Positions 8,965 to 60,050 of a DNA stretch of 64,000 nt are shown here, one piece after another. Within the stretch, counting starts at the first letter, position 1. Each line of letters opens with the position of its first letter. The position numbers were made by a program, and so were the translations under genes. Under the pieces are notes generated by a model. That model was not told the DNA's origin. It made no database searches and saw nothing but the letters and a program-made list of their open reading frames with translations. Origin of the DNA: an uncultured Anaerolineaceae bacterium (GTDB taxonomy: Bacteria > Chloroflexota > Anaerolineae > Anaerolineales > E44-bin32); the NCBI GenBank assembly GCA_964475265.1, contig CAYYVY010000003.1, forward strand, positions 1,500 to 65,499. The letters run 5' to 3'.

Positions 8965-8990
8965 CCAGACCAGAATGGAGGACGAAGATT

Positions 8991-9746: not shown

Positions 9747-9785
9747 AAAAGTGTTTCCGTCAGTATTCGAAAAGGATCGGTAGAC

Positions 9786-10859: not shown

Positions 10860-10947
10860 CAGGCTGCGGGGGAATGAGTGTAATAGAACAGAATAACTTC
10901 GGAGTGTTAAACCTCTTGGATAGAACTCTACTTGGGACCACGATGGC

Positions 10948-29298: not shown

Positions 29299-29322
29299 CT
29301 GACTTGCATGCGCAAACGTTCC

Positions 29323-29431: not shown

Positions 29432-29565
29432 CGACCGGCGAGTCAACGCCGGTCTATTCGGATAACGTTTGTCAGTTTACCACGTCCGCGCTGCGGATGT
29501 CAATTAATTGGATGGTCAAAGGGGGGCAGCGCCTCGTCAGCGCCACCCCCCTGGCGGCAGATGAA

Positions 29566-40454: not shown

Positions 40455-40647
40455 ATACGATTAGATATTCTATCGCAGAGAAACGAAAAGTCCCTGCAGC
40501 ATGTTTTTCATGTTATCTGCTATAATACGCCGGTCGCTCGGATCTGAAGGACCGAGACGAAAAAAGTTCGACCTTTATGCATACCGCCCCGGGTCCAGGC
40601 GGAAACCCTCGGACCGTTGGGCATCTCACTCAAGGGAGGAGATAGCC

Positions 40648-41520: not shown

Positions 41521-41531
41521 GAGACGGAATT

Positions 41532-42452: not shown

Positions 42453-43288
42453 TGAGAATCGTGGAGAGCATACTAGAACTACGAACAGCACGCGGGCAAC
42501 TCGAATCGCCATTAGGCTTCGTACCGACGATGGGGTTCCTGCACGAAGGGCACCTGTCGCTCGTGCGTCAGGCGCGTCAGGAATGCGGAAGCGTCGCGGT
42601 GAGCATTTTCGTCAATCCCACGCAGTTCGGACCGCAGGAGGATTTGGCCGCCTACCCGCGGGATCTCGAACGCGATCTGGGACTTCTCAAAGCCGAAGGG
42701 GTCGATCTGGTTTGGACGCCGACGACGGCGACGATGTATCCGGACGGCTACCAGACCTGGGTGTCGGTCGAAGAATTAACGCAGCACCTGGAGGGTGAGC
42801 AGCGGCCGGGGCATTTTCGCGGCGTGACGACGATCGTGGCGAAATTGTTCAACGCCGTGGGGCCCGATCGGGCCTACTTCGGGCAAAAAGATGCCCAGCA
42901 GGCGACGGTGATTCGCCGCATGAGCGCCGATTTGGATTTTCCCATTCAGATCGTCGTTTGTCCAACCGTGCGGGAAGCGGACGGTCTGGCAAAGTCGAGC
43001 CGCAACACGTACTTAAACGAAGCACAACGAAAGGCCGCGACGGTGCTTTTTCGCTCGCTGAATGCAGCCGTGCAGGCATTCGAAAGCGGGGAGCGCAAGG
43101 CGCAAACGCTGCGGGAGACGATGTCGACGGTGCTTGCCGGAGAGCCGTTGGCGGAGGTGCAGTACATATCTGTGGCCGATCCGGACACCCTGGAAGAATC
43201 GTCGGGAGAGATCACACGGGCACTGCTTTCGATGGCCGTTTTCATTGGCAAGACGCGTTTGATCGACAACATGCTGGTTGGAGAGTGA
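42452..43288 (+). CDS. panC: pantoate--beta-alanine ligase
   Basis: GFVPTMGFLHEGHLSLV and FGQKDAQQ. ATG 42452 is preferred to GTG 42449 on RBS spacing. Confidence 0.9.
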   Translation: MRIVESILELRTARGQLESPLGFVPTMGFLHEGHLSLVRQARQECGSVAVSIFVNPTQFGPQEDLAAYPRDLERDLGLLKAEGVDLVWTPTTATMYPDGYQTWVSVEELTQHLEGEQRPGHFRGVTTIVAKLFNAVGPDRAYFGQKDAQQATVIRRMSADLDFPIQIVVCPTVREADGLAKSSRNTYLNEAQRKAATVLFRSLNAAVQAFESGERKAQTLRETMSTVLAGEPLAEVQYISVADPDTLEESSGEITRALLSMAVFIGKTRLIDNMLVGE

Positions 43289-43312
43289 TTGTAGAGCTGA
43301 GGAGAGAGAATC

Positions 43313-44077
43313 ATGCTGTTAGCCATTGACATCGGCAACACGAACATCACCCTGGGCCTGTATCAGGCTGCAGAAATGAAAGCAGCCTGGCGTTTGGCGA
43401 CGGCGCACGAACGCATGCCCGACGAGTATGGACTGCAGATGTTGGGACTGCTGCAGCACGTCGAACATGGACCGGACGTTGTGGACGGGGTGGTGATGGC
43501 TTCGGTGGTGCCGCCGCTCACGGGTACCTTTCAACAGGCGTGCAAGGAATACATCGGCCAGACGCCGTTGGTGGTCGATGCCGGCGTGAAAACCGGTGTG
43601 CGCATCCGCTACGAGGATCCGAAGGCTGTCGGCGCCGACCGGGTGGTCGACGCGGCGGCGGTGCAGCACTTGTATGGCGGCCCGGCGTGCGTCGTAGATT
43701 TCGGTACCGCGACCACGTTCGACGCCATTTCCGCCGAGGGGGACTATCTGGGGGGAGCCATCGCGCCGGGAATCGGAATCGCCGCAGAGGCACTCTTTCA
43801 ACGCACGGCGAAGCTGCCGCGCGTGGAACTCTCCCGACCCCCGGCGGCGATCGGTAAGAACACCGTCCATGCCATGCAGTCCGGCCTGCTGTATGGTTAT
43901 GTGGGTCTGGTGGAAGGCATGGTGGACCGCTTCCGAGCCGAGTTGGGTCCTAAGATGAAGGTTATTGGCACGGGGGGATTGACCGAGATCATCGCAGCAG
44001 AAACGACTGTGATTCAAATCGTTGCCCCATGGCTCACGCTCGATGGTTTGCGCCTCATCTGGGAAATAAACTGCTGA
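43313..44077 (+). CDS. coaX: type III pantothenate kinase
   Basis: MLLAIDIGNTNITLGLY, VDFGTATTFD and GTGG. Confidence 0.9.
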   Translation: MLLAIDIGNTNITLGLYQAAEMKAAWRLATAHERMPDEYGLQMLGLLQHVEHGPDVVDGVVMASVVPPLTGTFQQACKEYIGQTPLVVDAGVKTGVRIRYEDPKAVGADRVVDAAAVQHLYGGPACVVDFGTATTFDAISAEGDYLGGAIAPGIGIAAEALFQRTAKLPRVELSRPPAAIGKNTVHAMQSGLLYGYVGLVEGMVDRFRAELGPKMKVIGTGGLTEIIAAETTVIQIVAPWLTLDGLRLIWEINC

Positions 44078-44171
44078 TTTACCTGTTTTCGCAGCGGACC
44101 GAATCGAAGTCCAGTGTAGATAACTGGGCCGGTCCTTGGTACACTTCTGCTTTGTAACCGAGGAGAAGCGC

Positions 44172-45149
44172 ATGAATCGCACTAGAGCCCACGCCGGAGA
44201 AGATGTACCTTCAGTGGAAGGACGCCCGGATGCGGCGCGCAAGCAGGATGCACAGGAAACGATCGATCCCGCCGGGTTGATCAGCCTGATGATCGTATAC
44301 CTCGCCTACGGCAGCACGTACCTGGCGATTCGCGTCGCCGTGCGTCCCGGCGGGGGTTTTTCACCGTTCACCCTCGGTTTCATGCGTCTGGTTCTGGCAG
44401 GCATCATTCTCCTGGTTTGGGGTGTGATGCGCAGGAAGCGCATGCTGCCACTGCGAGAGGAATGGCCCGTGCTCATCGGATCGGGGGTTCTCTTTTGGAC
44501 CATCGCCAACGGGCTTGTGGGGTGGGCGGAAATGCGTGCCGCTTCGGGATTGGCGGCGCTGATCGTCGCCTTTACACCGATTTGGGTGGCTTTTATCGAA
44601 TCTTTGATCGACCGTCGCCCACCGTCGTTTTTACTCTTCTTCTCGTTGCTGCTTGGATTTGGCGGCATCGTTCTCTTGAGTGTCCCTTCGCTGCAATCCG
44701 GTGTGCAGGCCGATCTGTACTCGCTGATCGCGCTGCTCGGCGCTTCCTGCAGCTGGGGGCTCGGTTCCGTGCTTCAAAGCAGACGCAAGGTTAGTCTCTC
44801 GCCGGAGGTGAGTTCGGGGTATCAGCAGCTTATCGGCGGCCTTGGTTTCATCATCAGCATTCTCCTCGCCGGCGACAGGTTGCCCACACCGACGGGCGAA
44901 GCCTGGGTGGCCTGGGGATATCTCGTACTGGTTGGCTCGGTTTTGGGGTTCACGGCATTCACGCAGGCTCTCAAGCTCCTGCCTTCCAGCGTGGCCATGA
45001 CCTACGCGTATGTAAATCCGGTGATTGCGGTCATATTGGGGGCGGTCATCTTGGGCGAGGAGATCACGCTGTGGACGTTTGCGGGCGCGAGCTTGGTGCT
45101 GCTGGGGGTAGCAGGCGTTTTCCGGGAGCGTTATGGCGGCATCTCGTAG
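44172..45149 (+). CDS. EamA/DMT family transporter
   Basis: 10-TM pattern with two EamA halves. The ATG at 44172 lies 6 nt after GAGGAG. Confidence 0.75.
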   Translation: MNRTRAHAGEDVPSVEGRPDAARKQDAQETIDPAGLISLMIVYLAYGSTYLAIRVAVRPGGGFSPFTLGFMRLVLAGIILLVWGVMRRKRMLPLREEWPVLIGSGVLFWTIANGLVGWAEMRAASGLAALIVAFTPIWVAFIESLIDRRPPSFLLFFSLLLGFGGIVLLSVPSLQSGVQADLYSLIALLGASCSWGLGSVLQSRRKVSLSPEVSSGYQQLIGGLGFIISILLAGDRLPTPTGEAWVAWGYLVLVGSVLGFTAFTQALKLLPSSVAMTYAYVNPVIAVILGAVILGEEITLWTFAGASLVLLGVAGVFRERYGGIS

Positions 45150-45266: not shown

Positions 45267-47327
45267 TCAGCTTATCTTGTCCGCCGCCAGAAGTTCTGCG
45301 TCCTGCGCTCGCGCAACCTTGCGTCCTTCCGCCACGTCTACCGTGGTTAACAGCCAACCACCGATGATGAAGAAGGCGATCAAACTCAGAATGGCGGGCC
45401 GGCTGCTGGCGAACGCCGCGCCGGCGGCTGCAAAGAGGATTGGACCCAGGACGGCGGAAAACTTCTCCATTACGCCGAACAGGCCGAAAAATTCTCCACT
45501 TTTCGCCGCGGGTGACATGACGGCGTACAGGCTGCGGCTTAGCGCCTGGCTGCCGCCCTGGACCGTGGCGACCATCCAGGCCAGGAACCAAAATTCGATG
45601 GTCGAGTTAAGGAAGTAGCCCCAGGCCGCAATGACTGCATACGCCAGCAGGGCCAGGATGATGCTGTGCTTCGTGTCCAGTTTGGCGGCGAGTTTGGAGA
45701 AAAGCCGGTCTCCGACAAGCCAGGCAAACAGCAGCCCAACGATCTGCAAGACCAGGATCAGGCCGAGGATGACGAGCAGACTTTGTTGGCGCGCGGCCGG
45801 CATGACCTCGAATGCGGCGATCGAGATCGTGTTTCCGGCGCTTTCCGCATTCCGATCCGGTGTGTTGATCAGGGAAAGGGTATGGACTCCGGCTTCGTCG
45901 ATCTCGATGGTGTCGGAGAGGACGCCGTAACGCGTAGTGGAAGCGTACGTATCGAGCGTAAGCTCCGTTCCTTCCGAGTCCAGGTAGGGTTCTCCGTCGA
46001 TTTCGACGGCCCAGATGCCCCCGTCCGGTCCTTCGCTGTACGTGAATTGAACTTCCTGCCCGTTGAAAGTGAAATCGAGGCGCGTGTCCGAATCACTGGT
46101 TTGTCGATAGATAACGTCTTCTACGCTTTCACCGAACAGGCGATTGATGAACTCGAAGAAACCGCCCCCGCTGATCTCGCTGGCAGAGACTTCCTCGTCG
46201 CGCCAATTGCCTGTGAACGAAATCGTCTCATGATCCACATCATGTATACCTTCGCCGGCGGCTGCAGCAGTGGCCTGGAAGACCGCGGGCTTCGATCCTG
46301 TAACGTCTGCAGGGAGCAGTTTAAGGCCCAGGACGCCAACGAGGGGCAGCATGATTATGTTGAAGACGATGAAAGCCAGATAGAACGATCTGCGTTTTTC
46401 ACGAGGGCTGGGAATTCGGCCGAAGATCAAACTGAAGGGAATGCCTACGAACTGCACCAGCAGAAGGGCGAGAATCAACTCGACCGTGCCGAAGCCAAGT
46501 TCGGCGCCGTAGATCGCGGCGACGCCGATGATCGTGCCGATGCCATCGTTGTAAATCAAGAAGGCGAGTAGAAATTTAAAGAGTTGACGATATTGGCGAA
46601 TATCTTTGAAGGTTTCACGCAGTCGTTTGAAACTTGCCGAGATAACGTTCTCTCTAGAACCAAGTTCAGCGGTGGCCGCGGGCGGTTCGGGTATGATGCG
46701 CAGCATTGGGACGGTGAAAATCGCCCACCAGACGGCAACACTGAGAAACGATAGGCGGGAGCCCAACGTCCCGGGCAGCATTTGAATCATGGCCACGTTT
46801 ACCGCCAGAAGGATGCCGCCGCCCAGGTATCCGAGTGCGTATCCGCGAGTCGAAACTCGATCGCGATCGTCTTCCTTGGCCACATGCGGCAGCAGTGCGT
46901 CGTAGAAGACATTCGCTCCAGTAAATCCAATGCGGCCGAGCACGAACAGGATCGACGCCAATACCCAGTCACCCGTCTGAATGAAAACCATCAGCCCGGT
47001 GGCCACGATGCCGATACCTGCGAAAACCGACAGAAAACCTTTTTTACCGCGTTTGATGTCGGATATCGTGCCGAGGATCGGGGAGAGCAGAGCGATGACG
47101 AAGAGCGAGATGGATAGGCCCAGGCTCCAAAGCGCCGTCGCAGCGGCGCGACTGGGCAGCGTCGCGCCGGCCACCTGGCTGTAATAAATCGGCAGCACGG
47201 CGGCCAGGATCGTCGTAGCGAAGGCGGAGTTTGCCCAATCGTACAGCGTCCAAGCGCGGATGCGGCGTTTGTATTCCATTTCACTGATTCCGTTATACGC
47301 GGCGACGGTTGCGGCTGCCATGTGCAC
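45267..47327 (-). CDS. MFS transporter, UMF1 (Atg22-like) family, with a roughly 175-aa soluble insertion
   Basis: AWTLYDWANSAFATTILAAVLPIYY is the UMF1 N-terminal signature. Residues about 340-515 (nt about 45783-46310) are non-hydrophobic and beta-rich (RLDFTFNGQEVQFTYSEGPDGGIWAVEIDGEPY ... GVHTLSLINTPDRNAESAGNTISIAAFEV). Confidence 0.7.
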   Translation of the reverse strand: MHMAAATVAAYNGISEMEYKRRIRAWTLYDWANSAFATTILAAVLPIYYSQVAGATLPSRAAATALWSLGLSISLFVIALLSPILGTISDIKRGKKGFLSVFAGIGIVATGLMVFIQTGDWVLASILFVLGRIGFTGANVFYDALLPHVAKEDDRDRVSTRGYALGYLGGGILLAVNVAMIQMLPGTLGSRLSFLSVAVWWAIFTVPMLRIIPEPPAATAELGSRENVISASFKRLRETFKDIRQYRQLFKFLLAFLIYNDGIGTIIGVAAIYGAELGFGTVELILALLLVQFVGIPFSLIFGRIPSPREKRRSFYLAFIVFNIIMLPLVGVLGLKLLPADVTGSKPAVFQATAAAAGEGIHDVDHETISFTGNWRDEEVSASEISGGGFFEFINRLFGESVEDVIYRQTSDSDTRLDFTFNGQEVQFTYSEGPDGGIWAVEIDGEPYLDSEGTELTLDTYASTTRYGVLSDTIEIDEAGVHTLSLINTPDRNAESAGNTISIAAFEVMPAARQQSLLVILGLILVLQIVGLLFAWLVGDRLFSKLAAKLDTKHSIILALLAYAVIAAWGYFLNSTIEFWFLAWMVATVQGGSQALSRSLYAVMSPAAKSGEFFGLFGVMEKFSAVLGPILFAAAGAAFASSRPAILSLIAFFIIGGWLLTTVDVAEGRKVARAQDAELLAADKIS

Positions 47328-47493
47328 CTCCTTCTTGGCATGCCTCGACGAAATTATCGAATCGATTTATCGGGCACTCTACATTACGAAAGGACCACCA
47401 AACATGGAATTGCTTCCTGGCGGTATTATCGCATCATAATGGGCAAAATTAAATAACCCATCACAAGCTCGAAAGCGTGGCGTCTCGTTCTCG

Positions 47494-49035
47494 CTACGGC
47501 TTCGTGAAAGGCCGATCTTTCTCCTCGATCATCTTAAGCATTTCTTGCTGCAGTTGCGAAGCAATTGTCGGATGGGTGGTGAGTAGATTCTGCAATTCTT
47601 CCGGATCATCGCGCAAGTTGTAGAGCTCGTACACACCGTCGTGCCCCTCGTAGCCGCGGTAGTGGATCAATTTGAAATCGCCTTTGATCATCGCCACCGT
47701 CGCTTTGCGTAAAGGAGCCAGTTTGGGGTTGCTTTTGGCTTCAACGACGAAGATGCTTCGCTCGCTGGGATGATCTTGTGCGGCATATGGGGGAAGAACC
47801 AATCCTTCACACCACGAAGGGATTGAACGACCGGCAAGGTGAAGCAGGGTAGGCAGAATGTCGATACAGCTTGTGGGGAGATAGACGTCCTGACGCTCTT
47901 TCTGACCGGGCCGTGTAATCAACAGCGGGACACGGACGATCGGTTCGAACAACGTAGGTGTGGTGTGTTTCCATATCTTGCGTTCAAACATCTCACCATG
48001 GTCGGACGTCAGCACGACAATGGTGTTGTCGTAGAACCCATTGGTTTCCAGATAATGATCCAATCGCCCGAACTCCGCATCGACGTAGGCGATGTATTCG
48101 TCGTAGAAGACGCGTTTCTCGTCCAAAACGTGCTGCCGATCTTCGAAGTTGGCAAAGAAATGATCGGGTTTCGGCGTTGGCGTCCAACCATCCCAGAAAA
48201 TGTTTACAAATTCCTCGCGTGGGCTGTAGGGATCATGTGGAGGCATCATGTGTAAATAACTGATGAAGGGTTGAGGCCACTCGGTCATTTGTTCTTGGAT
48301 CCAATCAATCGTCTCTTCGAGCGGGTAGAGCATGTCGTGATATCCCGGTACACCGCGGGGAAACCTTCGTTCCAAACGTCGCATTATGGATTGGTTCACG
48401 AACTTCTTTATCGACCATAAGATCGGGAAAAGGAAAAGAGAATTGGACGGTTCTCCCGGTTGTTTGTAATGACTGCGTTCGCCCTGGGAAGCGATACCAT
48501 AATCGCGCCGGAAGAGGTTATCGGAGACATTGAAGTCCACCAAGGCGATTTGATTGGGGAGTGTGAAAAGGTCGAGGTTTTGTTGGAGATAGAACAAAAT
48601 GATGTTTACCAAGAGATTGTGGGAAAACCCGACGCGGGTGTAGGTCTCTGCGTTGAATTCGCTGAAAATATTTCTGGAAGTGAATGAATCAAGCGGGGTT
48701 GCGTGGTGGCTGAATGCCCGATGCGTCCAGGGGAGCGTTCCGGTGAGTATGGAGGAGGTGCCGGGCGTGGTGAAGTTGCCGCCGGCGTAATGGTTGTGAT
48801 AGACGGTTGCTCTCTCTGCAAAGCGTTTCAAGTTGGGTGTCGTCTCCCGATGGAATCCGTAGAGAGACACATCGCGGGCTGCGAGCGTGTCGAAAACTAC
48901 GATGAGCACATTGGGTTTGTTCGCATTGGTTTTATTCCGGCCAAACGAAGGACTGGAGCCGGCAACCCACGGTGTGGCGAGCGAGATCAAGGAAGCCATT
49001 TTCAGGAATTCGCGCCGGTTAATTTTTGGTCTCAT
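47494..49035 (-). CDS. Tat-exported sulfatase-fold (alkaline-phosphatase superfamily) enzyme, Thr-type nucleophile motif
   Basis: Tat motif NRREFLKM. Metal and active-site motifs VLIVVFDTL, NFTTPGTSSILTG (TxPxT where sulfatases have CxPxR) and LTSDHGEMF. Confidence 0.75.
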   Translation of the reverse strand: MRPKINRREFLKMASLISLATPWVAGSSPSFGRNKTNANKPNVLIVVFDTLAARDVSLYGFHRETTPNLKRFAERATVYHNHYAGGNFTTPGTSSILTGTLPWTHRAFSHHATPLDSFTSRNIFSEFNAETYTRVGFSHNLLVNIILFYLQQNLDLFTLPNQIALVDFNVSDNLFRRDYGIASQGERSHYKQPGEPSNSLFLFPILWSIKKFVNQSIMRRLERRFPRGVPGYHDMLYPLEETIDWIQEQMTEWPQPFISYLHMMPPHDPYSPREEFVNIFWDGWTPTPKPDHFFANFEDRQHVLDEKRVFYDEYIAYVDAEFGRLDHYLETNGFYDNTIVVLTSDHGEMFERKIWKHTTPTLFEPIVRVPLLITRPGQKERQDVYLPTSCIDILPTLLHLAGRSIPSWCEGLVLPPYAAQDHPSERSIFVVEAKSNPKLAPLRKATVAMIKGDFKLIHYRGYEGHDGVYELYNLRDDPEELQNLLTTHPTIASQLQQEMLKMIEEKDRPFTKP

Positions 49036-49042
49036 TGAATAC

Positions 49043-49561
49043 TCACAGATTCCGTGCGATGACGACTATGACCCCGATGATGTCGAGAAACACATATAGA
49101 AAGGTCAGGATCGTAAGCCGTTCTGCCACGAGGCGGGTTATCTTTTGCAACTTTGATATTCTAGGTACGATGATGAGTGATATTGCCAGGGTCATCAGGC
49201 AAGCAACGAACATCCAACGTAAGGGGGAATACTGCTGTACAAGGTGTTGAAAGACGATGGCCATGATCGAGAGTTCAATCAAGAGGACTGCACACGTGGT
49301 TAGGAAAGGTTCTGGCAGCCATCTCTTGGGGATCAGCAAACCGATGACGAGTATGATGAGATAGATGAGGAGTGTCTCGAAAATCGTAAACATCAGATGG
49401 TATGCCACGCTGCCAACGATGTCGTCCCCACTCATGTACAGAATCCACGAGGGGACGTTTCTGAGCATGATGATGATCGACCAAACGTGGATTGGAAAGG
49501 CGCACAGAACGAATACGTGCATCAGATCTTGTGGAGAAAAGCGTTTTCGCAGGAATTTCAA
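49043..49561 (-). CDS. hypothetical polytopic membrane protein (paired with the sulfatase-fold gene)
   Basis: 172 aa with about 5-6 TM helices. The stop lies 7 nt before the sulfatase-fold start. Paralogue of 51171-51731. Confidence 0.6.
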   Translation of the reverse strand: MKFLRKRFSPQDLMHVFVLCAFPIHVWSIIIMLRNVPSWILYMSGDDIVGSVAYHLMFTIFETLLIYLIILVIGLLIPKRWLPEPFLTTCAVLLIELSIMAIVFQHLVQQYSPLRWMFVACLMTLAISLIIVPRISKLQKITRLVAERLTILTFLYVFLDIIGVIVVIARNL

Positions 49562-49611
49562 CGTTGCTTGACCTCGCTTGGAGATAGTCTCGTCATTTTA
49601 GAGAGGCAAGG

Positions 49612-51162
49612 CTAGTCTGAGTCCGATTGGATAAAAGGCGCATCCTTCTCCTCAATCTTCGCCAGCAGCTCATTTTTTAATGCTAACGCGATAGACGATT
49701 GAGTTGAGTAAAGATTTTCCAGTTCGTCAGGATCCTGTTCTAAATTATAGAGTTCGTATACGTCGTCGTATCCTTGATAACCCCGGTAATAGATCAGTTT
49801 GAACTCGCCTTTAATCATCGCGACGGTGGCTTTGCGCAGCGGTCCTATTTTGGGATTGCTTTTCGCTTCCACAGCGAAGATGCTGCGGTCGGGAGGTTGA
49901 TTTTGCGGCGTGTAGGGGGGAAGCACCGTGCCTTCAACCCAGGATGGAATCTGACGCTTTGTAAGATGCAGGAGGGTAGGCAGGACGTCCACGGAACAAG
50001 TCGTGGTGCGCACATCTTGCCGTGAAGTTTGGCCGGGGGTGGAGATCAGCAGTGGTACGCGGATGATGGGCTGGAACAGCGTCGGCGTAGTGTGCTGCCA
50101 TATCTTGCGTTCGAACATCTCCCCGTGGTCGGATGTAAGGATTACGATACTGTTGTCGAATACGCCAGTTTCCTGCAAATAGTCATGCAGACGTCCGAAC
50201 TCGGCATCCACGTAAGCTATGAATTGATCATAAAAAATGCGATGTCCATCGAGGATGTGTTGTCGGTTGGGGAAGTCGCCGAAAAAGTGGTCGGGTTTTG
50301 AAGGGGGTTGCCAACCATCCAGATACAAATCGATGAAATCTTTCCGGGGGCGGTAGGGATCGTGTGGCGGCATCATGTGCAGGTAGGCCAGGAAGGGTTG
50401 TGACCAGCGCCTCAACTGTTCCATGATCCAGTCGATGGTGTCTTCAAGCGGATACAGCACGTCATGGTCGCCGGGAATGCCCTTGGGGAAGTTGCCCTCG
50501 AGGCGATCGATCAGCAAGTTATTGATTTTTTCCCGAATAGACCAGAGGATCGGGAACAGAAAGAGAGAATCAGACAACCTATCGGGTTTTTTGAAGTAAA
50601 AAGTCTCGCTTTGGGAGGCGATCGAGTAATCCCATGGGAATATGTTATCGGCGAGGTTGTAATCGATCAAAGCCACCTCGTTCGGCAAAATGAATTCATC
50701 GAGGTTGGCTTTCAAATGGTCGAGGATCAGGCTGGCGAAGAAATTGTGTGTGAAGCCGATGCGTGTGTAATCACCGCCGCCAAATTCGCTGAAAACGTTA
50801 CGGTCGTTGTAGGCATCGAGCAGGGTGCCGTAGTGATTTATTGCCCTGTGGGTCCACGGGTAAGTCCCGGTGAGCAGCGAAGAAGTTCCCGGAGTCGTGA
50901 AATTGCCTGCGGAGTAATGCCTGTGAAACACTGTTGCGTGTTCCGCGAAACGCAGCAGGTTGGGGGTAGTTTCTCGATTGAAGCCGTAGAGTGAGGCATC
51001 ATGCGCGGAAAAAGCGTCGAAGACGATGATGATGACGTTGGGAGTGTCCGCATTTGTTCTCTGTTCTTCGAATTCGGGGTTCGACGCAGATAGAATTGGA
51101 GAGGTGAAAGGGATAAGGGATGCCAGCTTGAGAAATCCACGACGATTGATGGTTGGTTTCAT
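49612..51162 (-). CDS. Tat-exported sulfatase-fold (alkaline-phosphatase superfamily) enzyme, paralogue
   Basis: Start at MKPTINRRGFLKL (ATG 51162). The 97-aa upstream extension in the track overlaps the membrane gene and is rejected. It carries the same NFTTPGTSSLLTG and LTSDHGEMF motifs and is collinear with 47494-49035. Confidence 0.75.
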   Translation of the reverse strand: MKPTINRRGFLKLASLIPFTSPILSASNPEFEEQRTNADTPNVIIIVFDAFSAHDASLYGFNRETTPNLLRFAEHATVFHRHYSAGNFTTPGTSSLLTGTYPWTHRAINHYGTLLDAYNDRNVFSEFGGGDYTRIGFTHNFFASLILDHLKANLDEFILPNEVALIDYNLADNIFPWDYSIASQSETFYFKKPDRLSDSLFLFPILWSIREKINNLLIDRLEGNFPKGIPGDHDVLYPLEDTIDWIMEQLRRWSQPFLAYLHMMPPHDPYRPRKDFIDLYLDGWQPPSKPDHFFGDFPNRQHILDGHRIFYDQFIAYVDAEFGRLHDYLQETGVFDNSIVILTSDHGEMFERKIWQHTTPTLFQPIIRVPLLISTPGQTSRQDVRTTTCSVDVLPTLLHLTKRQIPSWVEGTVLPPYTPQNQPPDRSIFAVEAKSNPKIGPLRKATVAMIKGEFKLIYYRGYQGYDDVYELYNLEQDPDELENLYSTQSSIALALKNELLAKIEEKDAPFIQSDSD

Positions 51163-51170
51163 AGTATGGC

Positions 51171-51731
51171 TCACAGGATCCGGGTGAATACGACGACCAG
51201 GGCGACGATATCGACAAAAATATAGAGGAATGTAAGAACGGTCAGCCGTTTGATGATGGCGACGAAGATGTTGTTTAGCTTCTGGATGCGTGATACTGCA
51301 AATGCGACCACGATGGCCAGCAGTATCGCCGCGACGACCAGGAGGCGTCGATAGAGTACATATTTGAGCGTAAGGTATTGAATGGCGATCGCCAAGAGGG
51401 AGAGTTCGATCAACAACACAAAGCAAAAAGGAACGATCGATGGTCCGATCCACCGTTTGGGGATCAATAGTCCCAATAACAAAATACAGGCGAATACAAA
51501 GATGCTCTCGACGAGCATGAAGGTCAAAGTATAGGAAACGGCGCCAACAAGTTCACTTCTTGTTAGGTGAAGCAGCCAGGAAGGAACATCGCGGAACATG
51601 TTGGGGATCGCCCATACATGGATCGGAAACGAACAGGTGACGAAAATCTGTATTAACTCTTCTGAAGAAAACCTGTGCTTAAAGATAGCCAAGATCCTTG
51701 AGCCTTTCTTCCAGAGTTTCCCGATCTTCAT
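51171..51731 (-). CDS. hypothetical polytopic membrane protein, paralogue of 49043-49561
   Basis: Collinear with its paralogue from FKHRFSSEEL onward. The start is uncertain (GTG 51785, ATG 51731 or TTG 51692), and all candidates overlap the end of the upstream gene. Confidence 0.55.
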   Translation of the reverse strand: MKIGKLWKKGSRILAIFKHRFSSEELIQIFVTCSFPIHVWAIPNMFRDVPSWLLHLTRSELVGAVSYTLTFMLVESIFVFACILLLGLLIPKRWIGPSIVPFCFVLLIELSLLAIAIQYLTLKYVLYRRLLVVAAILLAIVVAFAVSRIQKLNNIFVAIIKRLTVLTFLYIFVDIVALVVVFTRIL

Positions 51732-53523
51732 CACTCGTAACTGGCGGCTTGGATGCTGAGGTTTCACGGGGTTGGAATTTTCCACCGATCACCAGATCCG
51801 GAACGTCGGCGTACGAGGGCGATGCGAGTTGTTCCAAGCTCGTGTTGGCAAACAGCACGCCCGGCACGAGGCCCGGGTCGATGCAGTGATCCGCACCCCA
51901 GTGATCGAGATTCCTTTCGAGTGCGTCGGCCTCCCAATTTCCGAGTCCCGTCTGCCCCGAAGCTCGATATCCGCTATTGAATCCCACTACAAGATCCGGC
52001 GCGTAGGGCGTGAGCGGGCCGTGGAACGCTTCCTCGCCCGTCCAGACCGTCCGCACAATCTGTCGGTTATCGGGTCCTTTCCAAGAGAGCAGCTCGTCTT
52101 TGATTTGGGCGGACAGCGCAGCTTGTTCGTTGTCGGCGACAATGCCGAGCTTCTCTCGCCCGGACATGTTGAGGTAAATGCTCGATAATCCCACCGCATA
52201 AGCACGGGTCTTCTGCCAGAGGACGTCCTGAAGTCCCCCTCGTGCCTCGTTGGTCTCAGGGGCAAGATGGCCATGTTCAATGAGCCAGCGATTCAGGTGA
52301 ACTTTGTAGTCGAAGCTGCTAAAGCCATGATCGGAGAGCACCAGAACTCTTGCATCTTGATGACCGCATTTTTTAATTTGCGCCACGATGCGGCCGAACA
52401 AGGCGTCCAATTTCAGGTACCATGATTCGACAATGTCCTCTCGGTCTCGCCAAAACATGTGCTGAAGACGATCGAGGGAGTCGAAAACGATGGCGAGAAT
52501 GCCTTCGTCGAAAGCTTGAATCTGACTCATAAGTACTTTTTCGCGAGACTCGAGGATCGAATCACACAAATATAAAAAGTGGTCGTCCTGAATGAATCCC
52601 TCGTCCAATGCGGTCGTGTCCTGTGGCCAGCCGAGGGTGTGAAACGGGCCGACATTTATCCACAGCCCCTTGGCGAAACCACCTGGATTGGCGTAAGGCC
52701 ACACAGCTTTTTGGGGATGTATCTGCAGCGGGAGGAAGTACAATCCCGGTCCATGGGAATTTTCGGTCAGCAGGACTTGCGTGATGGCGCGCACGGAAAC
52801 ACCGAGCCGCAGTTTGAAAGCAAGTTCGACAAAAGGACTCCAACGATCCTTTTCCAGCGCAATGATGTTCTTGTTGATTTGCAATCTGGCGTTGTTGGCG
52901 TCGATCCATTCGATCTCGAAAGCAAGTGAGGCTTGCTTGTCATCGGTTTTGTCCGATTTAAGCAGCGGTCCCTTCAAGGTGCCGTGTGCTTTTTGCTTGC
53001 CATCCGGTGAGAGGGTTTCGACGTTGGTTTTGTAGGTCTTTTCTGTGGGGTTGGGGTCAAGCTTGAAATAGGTTCCCACACCCAGGCGGCCGAGGATGTC
53101 TGGCGTCCCGAGGCCGGGGATCGTTTGTACGGGGGATTGCCTGCGGGCGGGAAAAGTTGCCGGCCACCAAAGGGTCGTAGCGGGATAGCCCATCTCTACG
53201 GCGTGTTCGAATACGGTATGGGCGTTGTGCGGGGGGACGAACTGCACGCCGAGCGCCGATTTCCTTGTGGGCAGTAAGGAAACGTGCAGGGCGTAATTGT
53301 CTGGATTGCGGTGTACGAAATCGAAGAGTCCGTGTTCGCCCGGGTTCATGCCGCTGGCGATACTGGTCCAGGAAACTTCACTTTGTGCAGGATTAGCAAC
53401 CGCCAAGCGGGCATAACCCTTGTTTGCGACATACTCTCCCAGGTTTGGCAGTTTCCCTTGGCTGTGCAGCCGTTCGAACAGGGTGGGATCGAACGCATCG
53501 AATCCGATAATAAAGGTTTTCAT
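51679..53523 (-). CDS. alkaline phosphatase family protein (type I phosphodiesterase / nucleotide pyrophosphatase-like)
   Basis: MKTFIIGFDAFDP, SEVSWTSIASGMNPGEHGLFDF and VLSDHGF form the PF01663-like motif order. Confidence 0.7.
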   Translation of the reverse strand: MKTFIIGFDAFDPTLFERLHSQGKLPNLGEYVANKGYARLAVANPAQSEVSWTSIASGMNPGEHGLFDFVHRNPDNYALHVSLLPTRKSALGVQFVPPHNAHTVFEHAVEMGYPATTLWWPATFPARRQSPVQTIPGLGTPDILGRLGVGTYFKLDPNPTEKTYKTNVETLSPDGKQKAHGTLKGPLLKSDKTDDKQASLAFEIEWIDANNARLQINKNIIALEKDRWSPFVELAFKLRLGVSVRAITQVLLTENSHGPGLYFLPLQIHPQKAVWPYANPGGFAKGLWINVGPFHTLGWPQDTTALDEGFIQDDHFLYLCDSILESREKVLMSQIQAFDEGILAIVFDSLDRLQHMFWRDREDIVESWYLKLDALFGRIVAQIKKCGHQDARVLVLSDHGFSSFDYKVHLNRWLIEHGHLAPETNEARGGLQDVLWQKTRAYAVGLSSIYLNMSGREKLGIVADNEQAALSAQIKDELLSWKGPDNRQIVRTVWTGEEAFHGPLTPYAPDLVVGFNSGYRASGQTGLGNWEADALERNLDHWGADHCIDPGLVPGVLFANTSLEQLASPSYADVPDLVIGGKFQPRETSASKPPVTSDEDRETLEERLKDLGYL

Positions 53524-53548
53524 CTAAATACTACAGTGAGTCCCGGTT

Positions 53549-53749
53549 TCACTGATCCGTGGATGGATCTACATCCGTGCTTTCGATTTCTGCAGGCGTG
53601 TCGCTTCCCGATTCTCGGAATCGTCGCTTCAACCTCGCCCAAAACATGCGAATCTTGCTTGAAAACACCAGAACCATCCCAGATATCGCCGCAAAGAGAA
53701 TCGCTAAGAGTTGAAAAATCTGGCCTCCGGTGTTCGGATCAATATACAT
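53549..53749 (-). CDS. hypothetical small membrane protein (66 aa)
   Basis: MYIDPNTGGQIFQLLAILFAAISGMVLVF (one TM helix) followed by a basic then acidic tail. It sits directly upstream of the AlkP-family gene. Confidence 0.4.
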   Translation of the reverse strand: MYIDPNTGGQIFQLLAILFAAISGMVLVFSSKIRMFWARLKRRFRESGSDTPAEIESTDVDPSTDQ

Positions 53750-53964
53750 GGTTGCACCTCTATTCTTAAATCGAAACGAAATTTGTGTTCATCCGGGTGC
53801 GATACGTCGCCGAAAACAAAAAGGTTTAACGTCTTTGCCCGAATTGGTGGATTTCATCGATTTATGATCCCCGACATTATAAACCATGTCGCAGGTTGTT
53901 TTCAGTTTGATAAAAATCTGGGCGTGGTTCCGAGCGGCCGCGGGGCCTTTTCACGATTCAATTT

Positions 53965-54564
53965 TTACTTGCGCTGACGGTAGAGCTTGGGATCAACCGT
54001 GCGAACCATCGAATCCAGATCGAGTGCGCAACCGAGGAATTGAGCGATCTTCTCGACGTAGGTTTGTGGATCGTTGACGATTTCCTTATAAGGCATATCG
54101 ATACGGGCAATGTAGTCTTGTTGGGAGAGCCATACTTCGATCTCTCGCAGGTGATTCTCGAGGATCGTTTTCATTTTCTCGTCATCGATCTTATCGGGGT
54201 TTTCACCGCGGCGAACGATCATCTTTCGCTGTGAGGCAAGCACCTCGCCGAGTTCGCGCTGCATAAAGATGACGTGATAGTGCAGGTCTTTGGGAAGCTT
54301 GGGAAGAAGATAGGAAATGATCTTGACGACTTTGCCTCCGGCGTTTTCCACCCAGGAAGTCTCCCCTTCCTTCAGCTGCTTCACTGCTTCGTATTCGTAA
54401 TACCCCAGGGGATTATCATCGTCCGCCTGGCGGACGCCATCGGTGAGGAGTTCTAGCCCGCCGCTTGCGAGCATATTCATCATCATGGATGTCCCTGAGC
54501 GGGGCAATCCAGATACAACGACGATGGTGTCGGATATTTTGGGGTCGATCGTGGGGTTGGTCAT
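53965..54564 (-). CDS. sulfotransferase family protein
   Basis: VVVSGLPRSGTSMMMNML is the PAPS 5'-phosphosulfate-binding loop. The roughly 200-aa size is typical of bacterial stand-alone sulfotransferases. Confidence 0.7.
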   Translation of the reverse strand: MTNPTIDPKISDTIVVVSGLPRSGTSMMMNMLASGGLELLTDGVRQADDDNPLGYYEYEAVKQLKEGETSWVENAGGKVVKIISYLLPKLPKDLHYHVIFMQRELGEVLASQRKMIVRRGENPDKIDDEKMKTILENHLREIEVWLSQQDYIARIDMPYKEIVNDPQTYVEKIAQFLGCALDLDSMVRTVDPKLYRQRK

Positions 54565-54616: not shown

Positions 54617-56197
54617 CTATTGGACGGAATCTACGAAGTATTTCGGGTTCAGCGGCTCTGCGGTCACGCTTTCGAGGTGACTCGCCCAATCCTGGCTGGC
54701 GCCGGGTTTGAAGTAATTCTCAATCAGCCACCGGCCGGTCTGGGTCTGTCCCAGGCGTGTGCCACTCTGCTTACTCAGGAACGCTTGCAGCTGCGACGAC
54801 ACGAGATGGCCGATTTCATAGCTATGATAGTAGACGGGGACGAGTGCCACGTGGTACTTTGCAGCCCAGTCCGGTGCGCGCCGATTTTCGGGCCGCCGCA
54901 GCAACTGATATTTCTCGACCAGATCCCACCATAAAGTATCCAAGTCCCGTTCAGGATCAGCGTAGAGGGCACGCTCGAAATCCGTCATCACCATCGCCCA
55001 GCGTGTGAAAACCAGCCGCTGGGCGCGTTTCTGTTCGGCGGCGGCGGAAGAAAGGCGTTCCGCTTCACTGTCATCCATCCCCAGCACGCTGCTCAGCCAG
55101 ATGCGATCGTAGGTCTGTGCTTCCATCAACAGCGCGATGGCTTCTGTGGATAAGGAGTGCGGTGGGGTTCTTAGAATCCACGGCAATTGGGGATCGATGT
55201 GCTGGTCGTATACTGCGTGGCCGAGTTCGTGAAGCAGGATCGACGTCCAGTGGTGGGAGGGCTCCAGGTTGTTTAGCGTGCGTACGTCGCCTTCCCGATC
55301 GATGTCGATACAGAAGGCATGTTGGTCTTTACCTTCACGCGGGTAGAGGTCGGAGCGGTCGAGGATGCCGCGCACATCTATTTCCATGCCGTCGTAGGTC
55401 GCGAGGGCCAACTCGATGGGGTCTCGATCTGCAAAATAAGGATCCAGCGCCACTTCGCTGATCTCTGGCGCGCGTTGGAAAAAACGATCGCCGTAATGCC
55501 AGGGTCGCAGGTCTACCGCGTCGATTCCGAAGTGCCCGGCGCGGACCCGGTCGATCGTTTCCTTCAAGCGTATAAACGGTGTTCGAGTGGCTGTTTCGAG
55601 TTCGGCGAAGAGTGCCGCCAGCTGTGCCTCATCGATTTCATTGAGAACCAGCGACCGCTGGTAATGATCGCGGAAGCCTTGCGCCTGTGCAGATTTGTTC
55701 CGCAGGCGGGCCAACTCCCGTACGTAGTCGGCGACTTCTTCGCCGATGCGCTTGCTCGCTTCCCAGACCTGGCGCACGGCGGAAGAATCATGGCTGGTGC
55801 GCAAAATACTCTCTACTTCGTTATCACTGATCGATTTTCCATCGACGAGGGCGCGAAAGTTGTAAAAGCAATGTTGGGCCTTGGTCTCGAGATCGGTGAT
55901 GGCTTCGATGGTTGCTTCGTCTTGCTGCGCTTTCGCGCTCGCGAGGTAGATCCGCTTTAGCGTTCGACGGTGCAGCGCATCGTCCGTGGTGCTCGTTTCG
56001 TTGAATTTCTGCGCGGTTTCGTACAGTTTTTTATCGGCCCAGAAGCGCATCAATTCGGCTTTGGCGTCTTTCTCGCGTCGTGCGGCCTCTTCCGTGCCCG
56101 TCGTGGCGGACTGCCACATGGCGCTTGAGAATTGAATGTGCAGCTTGCGTACTCGCTCGGTGACTTCGTCAATGAACGTTTGCGGTCGTTCTGTCAT
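54617..56197 (-). CDS. gluzincin zinc metallopeptidase (M2/M3-like)
   Basis: Start at MTERPQTF (ATG 56197). HELGHAVYD is followed by a downstream STEAIALLME (compare HEAIGD of M2). Confidence 0.65.
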   Translation of the reverse strand: MTERPQTFIDEVTERVRKLHIQFSSAMWQSATTGTEEAARREKDAKAELMRFWADKKLYETAQKFNETSTTDDALHRRTLKRIYLASAKAQQDEATIEAITDLETKAQHCFYNFRALVDGKSISDNEVESILRTSHDSSAVRQVWEASKRIGEEVADYVRELARLRNKSAQAQGFRDHYQRSLVLNEIDEAQLAALFAELETATRTPFIRLKETIDRVRAGHFGIDAVDLRPWHYGDRFFQRAPEISEVALDPYFADRDPIELALATYDGMEIDVRGILDRSDLYPREGKDQHAFCIDIDREGDVRTLNNLEPSHHWTSILLHELGHAVYDQHIDPQLPWILRTPPHSLSTEAIALLMEAQTYDRIWLSSVLGMDDSEAERLSSAAAEQKRAQRLVFTRWAMVMTDFERALYADPERDLDTLWWDLVEKYQLLRRPENRRAPDWAAKYHVALVPVYYHSYEIGHLVSSQLQAFLSKQSGTRLGQTQTGRWLIENYFKPGASQDWASHLESVTAEPLNPKYFVDSVQ

Positions 56198-56488
56198 GCA
56201 TGACTCCAAACTGCAGTTGTTTGCAGCGCAGTGATGAAGTATATCAGAGGATCGCACTGCGCGATTGAATGCGCAGACGGCTTGGGCCATCGGCCCCGAG
56301 CGCTTCGTTTAGGAGCGAAAACGGATTTGCCGCAGGTTCGGCTTGAGTCTATTATGGGAGTAAGGCTGCCACGCGTTCTGCGAAACGTCACAAACGGTAG
56401 GCGCGATCCGTTTTGTATATAAAGACGGCAAACGATGACCTGAAATCCACTTTTTCACTCGTGACCGAGTCTAATCAAGGAGGTTCTC

Positions 56489-57448
56489 ATGAATAGCTAC
56501 TACCTTCGAAAATCTGCCGCAGCATGGATGTGCCTCATATTCCTGTTCCTCGCCAGCCTGGCATGCAGTCTTCCTACGAACCAATCATCCGCCGGGTTGG
56601 AAGCTACACAGTTGGCCCTCGAAGTGGAAGCCACGACATTGGCGCTGCAAAAAGCCGTGCTTACCCAGGAGGCGGCATCGCAGGAAGAATCGGCTGGTCC
56701 ACCTGAGGCTGAAGAGCCTGCGCCGGAGGAAGAGCCAGCAGAGGCTACACCAACGGCAACGCAAGAAGCGCTGGAAGAACCCTCCGAGGCGGTGGAGGGA
56801 AGCCTGGAGCGCGCCTCGTACGATCCGGCCTACGGCTGGGGATCGGGACACGACAGCGACAATTTCGACGCATCGACCGGAAAATTTCCTTCGAGCAGTG
56901 CGGGAGCGGCTACCTCCTGGTATGGGGACGGACGCTACAACATCACCTTCACCTCGCGCAACCGCTGGACCTGGTATTGGTCGTTCATCGACGCGGCAGA
57001 TTTCTACGCCGATTTCTTGATCTTCAATGGTGACCAATGTGTTTCCGGGGACACGGCAGGGTTTGTTTTCCGAGGCGATCAGGTTCAGGATTATGGGTTG
57101 ATGTTCGGCATCAGCTGCGGAGGGGAATACTTTATCGGCTTCACTGCCATTCCGGGATCGGACGGTTTCGTGATTAATTTCACAGAAGCAGGCATTGAGT
57201 TTGGTGACCGGCAATTGTTCCATAGCGATCTGATCGCAACAGACCCGGGTGCAGTCAACCGCCTTGGGGTCATGGCTAAGGGAACGGAGATTGACTTCTA
57301 CATCAACGGCAAATGGGTCGCCAACCGATCAGTGGCGATGTACGCTCCTGCCCTTATGCACGGTCATTTCGCGCTCTACCTGGGAACGGCGCAGAAACCG
57401 AACGCCAGTGTGAGTTTCGACGATTTCAATATTTGGTACCTCGATTGA
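56489..57448 (+). CDS. lipoprotein with C-terminal LamG/DUF1080-like concanavalin-type domain
   Basis: Lipobox LASLAC, a helical segment ATQLALEVEATTLALQKAV, an E/P/A-rich linker, then GFVFRGD...NRLGVMAKGTEIDFYINGKWV...FALYLGTAQKPNASVSFDDFNIWYLD. Confidence 0.65.
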   Translation: MNSYYLRKSAAAWMCLIFLFLASLACSLPTNQSSAGLEATQLALEVEATTLALQKAVLTQEAASQEESAGPPEAEEPAPEEEPAEATPTATQEALEEPSEAVEGSLERASYDPAYGWGSGHDSDNFDASTGKFPSSSAGAATSWYGDGRYNITFTSRNRWTWYWSFIDAADFYADFLIFNGDQCVSGDTAGFVFRGDQVQDYGLMFGISCGGEYFIGFTAIPGSDGFVINFTEAGIEFGDRQLFHSDLIATDPGAVNRLGVMAKGTEIDFYINGKWVANRSVAMYAPALMHGHFALYLGTAQKPNASVSFDDFNIWYLD

Positions 57449-58475: not shown

Positions 58476-58718
58476 TGGTGTTTCATCCACTACCCGTTTA
58501 CGCCGGTGAAGGACGAGGATTGGGTTTCTACTATTCCTTTGATTGATATGCACCAGAGGGCCGGGGCGATGGCCGTGATATCGGGTTGACGGTACAATTT
58601 GACTTCTTGATCCACATCTCTACAGTAAAGTTGGATCGGCTCAGTGTACAATGGATGCAGGATTTCTTCCCTGATAGATGATGGGAAGCGCGACGCATTC
58701 GATAACGAGGACGGCCAC

Positions 58719-59957: not shown

Positions 59958-60050
59958 GTTACTTTCCGTGTGGGCAACGGTTTTCAGGGCATTTTTACAT
60001 CAAAATTCATTACTTCACGCCTCGCAAAAGAATGTGATCTAATTTTCAGT

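Follow-up and report, generated by a model that had tools for sequence, protein, structure and literature searches.

The subject of this analysis is a gene cluster at positions 45267–54564 of a 64,000-nucleotide (nt) stretch of DNA from an uncultured Anaerolineaceae bacterium (the window; position 1 is its first letter), within which four types of gene, encoding a single-pass microprotein (s66), an NPP-like enzyme, a five-helix membrane protein (Mem) and a sulfatase-fold enzyme (Sulf), form a conserved unit. Open reading frame (ORF) listing and translation, together with Pfam and NCBIfam scans, place eight ORFs in this region, all on the minus strand. The sequence-only reading of this DNA had described eight co-directional genes with short gaps from 53749 to 47494, which the ORF coordinates bear out, and its gene calls (sulfotransferase, small transmembrane protein, NPP/AlkP-type enzyme, two pairs of membrane and sulfatase-fold proteins, MFS transporter) agree with the Pfam scans and transmembrane (TM) predictions. 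The genes, together with the next gene on the same strand and one promoter-like site, are as follows.

45267–47327, minus strand: MFS transporter, Atg22-type (Pfam ATG22, 226 bits, cutoff 24)
47494–49035, minus strand: SulfA (Pfam Sulfatase PF00884, 133 bits, cutoff 25)
49043–49561, minus strand: MemA, five hydrophobic helices, no Pfam match
49612–51162, minus strand: SulfB (Pfam Sulfatase PF00884, 134 bits, cutoff 25)
51171–51731, minus strand: MemB, five-TM partner of SulfB, 46% identical to MemA
51679–53523, minus strand: NPP-like protein, 614 residues (Pfam Phosphodiest PF01663, 101 bits, cutoff 23)
53549–53749, minus strand: s66, 66 residues with one TM helix, no Pfam or NCBIfam match
53876–53905, minus strand: weak promoter-like site in the gap between the sulfotransferase and s66 genes, agreeing with 10 of 12 consensus positions
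53965–54564, minus strand: sulfotransferase, 199 residues (Pfam Sulfotransfer_3, 41 bits, cutoff 27; Sulfotransfer_1, 32 bits, cutoff 22)
54617–56290, minus strand: M2/M3-like peptidase, the next gene on the same strand

Intergenic spacing within the run from s66 to SulfA is about −50 to +50 nt, and wider gaps separate the sulfotransferase from s66 (215 nt) and SulfA from the MFS gene (166 nt). The nearest contigs in other genomes belong to metagenome-assembled genomes (MAGs) of Anaerolineales (Chloroflexota). Scanning one genome per species confirmed at least 530 Sulf-type loci, and the neighbourhoods of the best 78 of these were analysed by tblastn with all proteins of the window (L-numbers denote loci retrieved from other genomes and metagenomes). 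Nearly all of the best 78 are labelled Anaerolineae/Chloroflexota; the exceptions are a few short contigs in MAGs labelled Verrucomicrobia or Desulfobacterales, which possibly reflect mis-binning. The order s66, NPP, Mem, Sulf is kept in most of these loci, at identities of 41–55% for Sulf, 47–57% for NPP and 24–35% for Mem, and in almost every one of them the gene immediately upstream of Sulf is Mem. As an independent control, we scanned metagenomes with the s66 motif alone as seed, which yielded 80 loci, 47 of them with at least 900 bp of downstream sequence. The gene directly downstream of s66 in these 47 informative loci was NPP in 33, Mem in four and Sulf in one (38/47). One motif match, in L084, was rejected as s66, since YIDPNTGG occurs there by chance within an unrelated soluble ORF, and the other atypical motif loci that were inspected hold genuine s66 genes.

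The conserved unit is s66–NPP–Mem–Sulf, with or without the sulfotransferase. That these genes are merely adjacent, with no functional unit behind them, has next to no chance of being correct, given that the core order is kept at 41–55% identity in dozens of unrelated contexts reached from two independent seeds. Adjacency does stand for the MFS and peptidase genes alone: tblastn found the MFS gene only in the close relatives L001–L007 and in none of the 74 distant loci, and the peptidase gene, two lipoprotein genes beyond it and the flanking pan/coa genes were likewise confined to L001–L007, where the whole pan/coa synteny is kept. The MFS transporter and the M2/M3-like peptidase were rejected as module members for this lack of co-conservation outside relatives. 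Conservation of the neighbourhood, which the sequence-only reading had proposed as a check on the cluster, is thus found for the four core genes in both searches and not for the MFS gene.

SulfA and SulfB are 63% identical and both have the sulfatase fold (PF00884). The 613-residue ORF listed for SulfB is an over-extension; the conserved start is MKPTINRR, and the sequence, MKPTINRRGFLK, carries a twin-arginine. Twin-arginine signals occur in 107 of the 120 best Sulf homologues, and export by the twin-arginine translocation (Tat) pathway is predicted for the family. In a HMMER alignment of SulfA with the phosphonate monoester hydrolase (PMH) 4upk, T89 pairs with the formylglycine Cys and T93 with the Arg of the motif (N-F-T-T-P-G-T in Sulf against N-P-C-G-P-S-R in 4upk), with T-T-P-G-T present in both copies. 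The motif was readable in 102 of the same 120 homologues, all of which have T-x-P-x-x, most commonly TTPGT, while Arg at the fifth position was found in none. Established sulfatase biochemistry, as summarised in PMC12421950, is that Thr is not convertible to formylglycine, so the names ‘arylsulfatase’ and ‘choline-sulfatase’ are unsafe for these proteins, which their sources call ‘arylsulfatase A-like enzyme’, ‘choline-sulfatase’ or ‘sulfatase-like hydrolase/transferase’; as long as Thr-type Sulf proteins are named as sulfatases, sulfatase counts in Chloroflexota metagenomes are probably inflated. Taken with Tat export, T-x-P-x-T indicates that Sulf proteins are not ordinary sulfatases.

We rejected a canonical formylglycine sulfatase because T-x-P-x-T replaces C/S-x-P/A-x-R. 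No curated sulfatase cutoff is reached: the NCBIfam models for choline-sulfatase, arylsulfatase and PehA score 136, 111 and 93 bits against cutoffs of 433, 481 and 900, respectively. Scores on the LtaS (32–35 bits, cutoff 970) and EptA (25–29 bits, cutoff 561) models are lower than those on the sulfatase models. Four residues, D49, T89, D345 and H346, are invariant across 19 diverse Sulf homologues and, by sequence alignment, reproduce the ligand pattern of LtaS (Mn site E255/T300/D475/H476) and GacH (E488/T530/D711/H712), save that Asp replaces Glu as first ligand; the Thr of LtaS and GacH forms a covalent glycerol-phosphate intermediate (10.1101/337519). PMH-type enzymes have an Asp/nucleophile/Asp/His metal arrangement (PMC12421950). 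The manganese arylsulfatase EfAS, considered as a Thr-type precedent, was discarded, as it uses Cys/formylglycine.

These results bear on the idea that the atypical Sulf enzymes hydrolyse sulfate esters without formylglycine, trimming a glycan sulfation set by neighbouring sulfotransferases, which we regard as very unlikely. The idea draws on the sulfatase fold, on choline-sulfatase and arylsulfatase being the best-scoring profiles, on the recurrence of sulfotransferase and 3′-phosphoadenosine-5′-phosphosulfate (PAPS) synthase genes beside the core, and on a gene with a formylglycine-generating enzyme (FGE) domain that L001 carries beside its cluster. It conflicts with the absence of C/S-x-P/A-x-R wherever the motif can be read, Thr standing here for Cys/Ser and again for Arg, with NCBIfam sulfatase scores far under their cutoffs, and with the lack of an FGE homologue in the window (queried with the FGE-domain protein of L001; no search for the anaerobic sulfatase-maturating enzyme anSME was made).

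The FGE-domain gene of the relative L001 (16819–18981 of that locus) encodes a 720-residue secreted protein with FGE-sulfatase and BNR domains and lies between the MFS and EamA genes; the window has no counterpart between 45149 and 45267. Such a gene is unexpected next to ‘sulfatases’ without a convertible Cys or Ser. The copy number of Sulf is itself plastic, with up to five Sulf genes per locus (L048, L020, L022, L045, L059 and L075).

Mem genes lie 5–50 nt upstream of Sulf, with two Mem+Sulf pairs in the window and three in close relatives. The identity matrix of the Mem paralogues correlates with that of the Sulf paralogues (r=0.93), and in 8/10 cases the best partners match, which indicates that the pairs duplicate and diverge as units. 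MemA and MemB, 46% identical to each other, have no Pfam or NCBIfam match, even with Pfam extended to E up to 10. A word-indexed search returned 21 close clusters only, and an exhaustive profile search placed 1,091 clusters (at 50% identity) in the family, the best 150 of which are stand-alone proteins of about 130–240 residues, none fused to another domain. The AlphaFold2 (AF2) model of MemA (predicted local distance difference test score, pLDDT, 92.8) has helices at residues 10–42, 45–76, 86–107, 114–134 and 136–171. Across 74 diverse members, W27, P37, Y54, E62, P78, Y156, R170 and N171 are conserved, including the polar residues Y54, E62 and Y156 inside the helices and the C-terminal R170–N171. 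The positive-inside rule suggests that the N-terminus is inside and the C-terminus outside. As a separate observation, several Mem–Sulf pairs of one MAG (L009, L010, L075) are found on contigs with no NPP or s66 gene nearby.

The NPP-like protein is 53–60% identical across the class, and nearly all of the matches listed are about 604–630 residues long. It has no signal peptide, TM helix or hydrophobic segment. Its sequence begins MKTFIIGFDAFDP, residue 9 being the putative first metal-ligand Asp, and 25 nt separate this start from the end of the upstream ORF. It is accordingly predicted to be cytoplasmic, and it does not conform to the secreted or ecto-enzyme type of the NPP family. In its AF2 model (pLDDT 87.6, predicted TM-score, pTM, 0.90), a beta-rich insert occupies residues of about 130–265 (~135 residues), and the best Foldseek matches are Xac NPP, phosphonoacetate hydrolase (PhnA) and ENPP1/5/6 (probability 1.00, E down to 5e-11, target TM-score about 0.62–0.65); a PDB sequence search returned nothing significant. 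Residues D9, S51, D351, H355, D398, H399 and H546 are invariant and S48 nearly so, a set that fits a two-metal NPP-type site with a hydroxyl nucleophile, if our mapping onto NPP positions holds. The 3′ end of the gene and the start of MemB share about 50 nt, an overlap that points to translational coupling.

The extreme C-terminus of the NPP-like protein (51679–51705) reads RLKDLGYL, with R607, L608, L611, G612 and Y613 invariant. A second NPP-family protein of ~560 residues (L015, L018, L024, L027, L057), which sits in some of the same glycan clusters as the core, shares an L-(K/R)-x-L-G-Y-(L/V) C-terminus. This C-terminus may be a docking peptide.

In the microprotein s66, an N-terminal M-YIDPNTGG precedes one TM helix, after which come a basic cluster (RLKRRFR) and an acidic tail that is variable; neither Pfam, again extended to E up to 10, nor NCBIfam has a match for the protein. 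All 54 genome homologues (54/54) have Y-x-D-P-x-x-G-G, mostly as YIDPNTGG, with the Y, D, P, G and G invariant. A signal-peptide-like extension ends just before AYIDPNTGG in 33 of the 54, for example MKKLVGKATAIVFLMSLAIYGTAQA directly ahead of AYIDPNTGG in L152, which places the s66 motif on the outer face of the membrane.

An invariant external Tyr invites comparison with DltX, the single-pass microprotein that acts as Tyr shuttle in Dlt D-alanylation (PMC12148441). Each of the two crosses the membrane once, carries an invariant Tyr within a short and highly conserved outer-face motif, and is encoded in an operon for the modification of envelope polymers, a role that is proposed for the core. 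The Dlt system, in contrast, carries out acyl transfer via MBOAT and SGNH proteins, and the core has no MBOAT; moreover, the DltX motif is C-terminal (FxYxxF) and that of s66 N-terminal (YIDPNTGG), with no sequence relationship; the likeness is one of analogy only.

On this analogy, the core might work as a trans-membrane relay, in which the NPP-like enzyme would take a group containing phosphoryl or sulfuryl from an activated donor in the cytoplasm and the group would pass through Mem to the external Tyr of s66, then to Sulf and finally to a surface glycan, in parallel with the path from DltC through DltB and the DltX Tyr to DltD in D-alanylation. We consider this quite unlikely. It would make sense of alkaline-phosphatase-superfamily domains predicted on both sides of the membrane, with NPP translationally coupled to Mem, of the polar residues E62, Y54, Y156 and R170 conserved within the Mem helices, and of the way s66 combines a variable cytoplasmic tail with an external Tyr that is invariant within a membrane-surface motif of ~9 residues. 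The retention of s66 with Mem–Sulf where NPP is absent (L011, L059, L060, L077), the precedent of DltX and the recurrent link to PAPS synthase and sulfotransferase genes described below also speak in its favour. The case is nevertheless wholly inferential, and we know of no phosphoryl or sulfuryl relay of this kind, which counts against it. Mem–Sulf pairs are, furthermore, often found with no NPP or s66 nearby (L009, L010, L043, L070, L073), Mem shows no recognised MBOAT-like or channel fold (Foldseek against the PDB), and the NPP-like protein could instead be co-exported with Sulf by Tat hitch-hiking. If the relay were true, it would be a new delivery route for charged groups to extracytoplasmic polymers and the first phospho- or sulfo-group counterpart of the DltX acyl shuttle; were the group sulfate, it would also be the first known bacterial polymer sulfation outside the cytoplasm.

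The 199-residue PAPS-type sulfotransferase next to the core passes the curated Pfam cutoffs for both sulfotransferase families in the list above. By inspection, we take GLPRSGTS (residues 19–26) to be a 5′-phosphosulfate-binding (5′-PSB)-like motif and QRELGEVLAS to be the R-x7-S stretch; a PDB sequence search with the protein gave nothing significant. Orthologues (45–52% identity) adjoin the core in L008, L015, L044, L050, L056, L062, L072, L078, L079 and L081. The distant loci in which the gene immediately flanks the core number about ten, all independent, and neither its side nor its strand is fixed; it is also adjacent in 16 of the 80 metagenome loci found by the s66 motif. The sulfotransferase is an optional and yet recurrent neighbour of the core.

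To characterise the wider context, the ORFs of all loci were clustered and representatives were profile-scanned. Elsewhere, the core adjoins genes for Wzm, for Wzt with a Wzt_C domain, and for GT4 and PMT_2/GT-C glycosyltransferases, as well as an O-antigen-ligase-like protein with TPR repeats, NeuB, a CMP-sugar cytidylyltransferase, Capsule_synth, a carbamoyltransferase, SGNH/AlgX proteins and a second sulfotransferase family (275 residues). A bifunctional PAPS synthase gene lies right beside the core in L016, L017, L031, L046 and L068; in three of these (L016, L046, L068) Sulf is followed by the bifunctional PAPS synthase, an SDR, the CMP-sugar cytidylyltransferase, NeuB and Capsule_synth. 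In L029, L034 and L036–L038, the core lies within a co-directional Wzm/Wzt cluster of ~20 kb that also encodes carbamoyl-, acetyl- and sulfo-transferases. The cluster of the Promineifilaceae/Ardenticatenaceae loci has, co-directionally, genes for a carbamoyltransferase, SGNH, BNR, s66, NPP, Mem and Sulf, and continues after Sulf with Wzm, Wzt, GT4, PMT_2, BNR, a sulfotransferase, GT4 and an epimerase. Of the distant loci, 38 extend over at least 15 kb; glycan genes are present in 27 of these, Wzt in 18, and a gene for a sulfotransferase or PAPS synthase in 17.

Immediate neighbours were surveyed in a random sample of 136 of 278 ORFs. The ranking was headed by ABC-2 membrane proteins (7), ABC_tran (6, five of them with Wzt_C), sulfotransferases (6) and PMT_2 (6), followed by SGNH/AlgX (5), PAPS synthase (4), further NPP-family proteins (4) and GT4 (3). 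No phosphate-starvation, importer or catabolic family was among the 25 most frequent families of this sample. In O-antigen systems, the Wzt_C domain binds to a modification at the glycan terminus.

This survey weighs on the view that the cluster serves nutrient scavenging, with Sulf proteins acting, like Tat-exported PhoD and PhoX, as extracellular phosphodiesterases, phosphatases or esterases that free phosphate or sulfate, or molecules carrying them, from polymers of the environment or the cell wall; the MFS transporter would import the products and the cytoplasmic NPP-like enzyme finish their hydrolysis. We judge this unlikely. In its favour, one to five Sulf paralogues per locus are typical of catabolic sulfatase and phosphatase arrays, the Sulf proteins are Tat-exported and lie closest to hydrolase models (choline-sulfatase, arylsulfatase, PehA), some loci have BNR/sialidase-like neighbours, and in this lineage MFS and peptidase genes are adjacent. 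Yet biosynthesis and export genes dominate the sampled neighbours, anabolic PAPS synthase and sulfotransferases are among the commonest of them, and the 25 most frequent neighbour families contain no Pst/Pho, solute-binding, importer or glycoside-hydrolase arrays. Nor is the MFS gene co-conserved beyond close relatives, and a dedicated five-TM partner with an external microprotein would be unexpected for soluble hydrolases.

We tentatively favour, with a little under even confidence, the reading that the core is an undescribed Anaerolineae envelope module that tailors a surface glycan, by group transfer or ester editing at the outer face of the membrane. Synthesis or remodelling of a surface polymer had been suggested in the sequence-only reading; co-conservation and the glycan and sulfation context support that direction, with the functional unit reduced from all eight genes to s66–NPP–Mem–Sulf. 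Its statement that the cluster matches no described pathway also stands: our literature searches, which covered Chloroflexi sulfatase-like proteins together with Wzt, sulfatases with a Thr nucleophile, COG3379 and sulfated glycans of the Wzm/Wzt type, returned neither such a pathway nor a description of the module.

In such a module, genes elsewhere in the genome would make and export a glycan, to which the sulfotransferase would add sulfate while it is still in the cytoplasm. At the inner face, the NPP-like enzyme, itself cytoplasmic, would make or process the donor or the lipid-linked substrate. Sulf would be folded, and probably metal-loaded, in the cytoplasm before Tat export, after which each exported Sulf would dock on its own Mem partner with s66 alongside. 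The metal-bound Thr of Sulf would form a covalent intermediate, by way of which the exported glycan would gain or lose an anionic ester group (phospho-X or sulfate); LtaS, EptA and GacH work in this way, with a Thr nucleophile and a membrane domain. Multiple Mem+Sulf pairs would provide different acceptor or positional specificities. The sequence data show the gene content, the co-conserved order, the lost formylglycine motif, the Tat signals, the co-duplicated pairs and the glycan and sulfation context; we infer that the proteins form a complex and that Sulf acts as a transferase and not as a hydrolase, and likewise which group it handles and on which acceptor.

Several observations weigh against surface-glycan tailoring of this kind. 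By sequence, Sulf sits with sulfatases and PMHs and not with LtaS/EptA, which would make hydrolysis as plausible as transfer, and the LtaS/EptA paradigm leaves the role of the cytoplasmic NPP-like enzyme unexplained, this being the least explained part of the proposal. Foldseek of the Mem model against the PDB gave nothing at E<1 (PbgA/YejM 6v8q, E=3.7, TM-score 0.29), and hhalign of the Mem profile against the TM domains of E. coli EptA and LapC gave 0.1% probability; a ‘split LtaS/EptA’ by homology was rejected on these two results, and the LtaS/EptA parallel is one of analogy only. There are also Sulf copies with no adjacent Mem (e.g. L048, L020, L022), and about 30% of the long distant loci have no glycan genes within 10 kb. 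The window itself contains no Wzm/Wzt, glycosyltransferase/glycan-assembly or PAPS-synthesis gene, and the genes for the acceptor and for sulfate activation would therefore have to lie elsewhere in the genome.

Of the known systems, LtaS, LtaP, GacH, EptA (MCR) and OpgB resemble the proposed module in having an outer-face sulfatase-fold domain with a metal-bound Thr and a following Asp-His pair, as the Sulf sequences predict, and in having a multi-helix membrane module, of five helices in LtaS as in Mem. GacH-type enzymes lie within the gene cluster of an ABC-exported wall polysaccharide, which they decorate after export (10.1101/337519). The differences are considerable. In the LtaS/EptA type an N-terminal multi-TM domain is fused to the catalytic domain, whereas here the TM module is a separate gene and the catalytic domain of Sulf is predicted to be exported alone, by Tat; Sulf scores 136 bits on the sulfatase model and 25–35 bits on LtaS/EptA; the first metal ligand is Asp in Sulf and Glu in LtaS/GacH; and the s66 and NPP-like partners have no counterpart.

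Type I sulfatases and PMHs (choline sulfatase, 4upk, EfAS) share with Sulf the fold, the best matches and a PMH/EfAS-like Asp-nucleophile-Asp-His site (PMC12421950), and differ in that T-x-P-x-T runs throughout the Sulf subfamily, making formylglycine impossible, and in that Sulf has a dedicated membrane partner. The NPP-like protein shares its core fold with NPP and phosphonoacetate hydrolase (PF01663; the COG3379-type ‘AlkP superfamily phosphohydrolase/phosphomutase’), and by our mapping its invariant Asp, His and Ser residues would fit a two-metal site, while it is only 9–13% identical to solved NPPs, from which the ~135-residue beta-rich insert and a C-terminal L-x-x-LGY set it apart; unlike the classical NPPs, which are ecto-enzymes, it is predicted to be cytoplasmic and is always encoded with membrane partners. 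As for glycan pathways that depend on ATP-binding cassette (ABC) exporters of the Wzm/Wzt type, Wzm and Wzt_C-bearing Wzt are the commonest neighbours of the core elsewhere, with none in the window, and the literature searched contains no description of an alkaline-phosphatase-superfamily module of this kind in such pathways. The three enzyme types thus belong to known superfamilies, and their likely job, envelope-polymer tailoring, is also known. What is new is the architecture: a Thr-type sulfatase branch, a separate and non-homologous five-TM partner, the YIDPNTGG microprotein and a coupled NPP-like enzyme that is predicted to be cytoplasmic.

Anaerolineae abound in sediments, digesters and activated sludge, and to our knowledge almost nothing is known of their envelope chemistry. 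Several hundred species-level genomes have the module, which is linked to genes for Wzm/Wzt export and for sulfation and suggests that anionic surface glycans, sulfated and/or phosphorylated, are widespread in the class. It also brings to light two unrecognised families, the five-TM Mem (~1,091 clusters at 50% identity) and the YIDPNTGG microprotein.

The MFS transporter beside the core carries an insert of ~180 residues (residues ~336–515) between hydrophobic segments 317–335 and 517–535, predicted as TM9 and TM10, and the insert is predicted to face outward. The sequence-only reading had described a lectin-like loop in this protein: the insert is real, and the lectin label is unverified, the insert giving no significant match in Pfam (E up to 10) or among PDB sequences.

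The block from the sulfotransferase to SulfA (47494–54564) has a GC content of 51.4% and about 62% GC at third codon positions (GC3), compared with 56.1% for the whole window and about 60% (GC3 70–73%) for the pan/coa flanks. Just 8.9% of 7-kb windows have GC as low, all of them within a separate low-GC stretch at 3–13 kb. The MFS gene, at 57.6% GC (GC3 69%), resembles the flanks and not the core, and the AT-richer block noted by eye in the earlier reading thus holds for about 7 kb, with the MFS gene excluded. The GC dip is also present in the relatives L001 and L004, which indicates that it is not a recent insertion, and a recent horizontal island was rejected as unsupported, given that block and dip are syntenic in relatives. 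As a whole, the block of ~13 kb splits a pan/coa supercluster, with panB, panE, panC, coaX and an EamA transporter gene on one side (40501–45149), then the block, two lipoprotein genes, and coaBC and DUF72 on the other (58644–60863); the same pan/coa genes are split by the block in L001 and L002.

Promoter-like sites over the region showed no excess (six found against 7.6 expected), and the site at 53876–53905 is only a hint that the core might have its own promoter. Terminator-like sites numbered 25, against 12.1 expected from shuffles.

The two lipoprotein genes (56489–57448 and 57519–58475, plus strand), found beside the cluster in close relatives only, encode paralogous predicted lipoproteins with a signal peptide bearing an L-A-C-S lipobox, an acidic Pro/Glu-rich linker and a C-terminal beta-rich domain, the sole hint of a known domain being a weak ConA-like/Laminin_G_3 match (E=0.011). 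At the other end of the window, positions 1511–13043 form the second low-GC stretch (45–53% GC), with several ORFs that have no Pfam match, a TraG/TrwB-like coupling protein of 989 residues (1511–4480), a histidine kinase and response regulator (7366–9746) and a DnaB/KaiC-like ATPase (9786–10859); this stretch is probably an integrated mobile element. Further along, a SAM (S-box) riboswitch (29321–29433, minus strand, 85 bits) lies upstream of a 1168-residue minus-strand ORF (25742–29248), and a minus-strand gene at 29566–31677 encodes a 703-residue protein with Chlamydia-PMP-type repeats (91 bits) that is probably surface- or adhesin-like.

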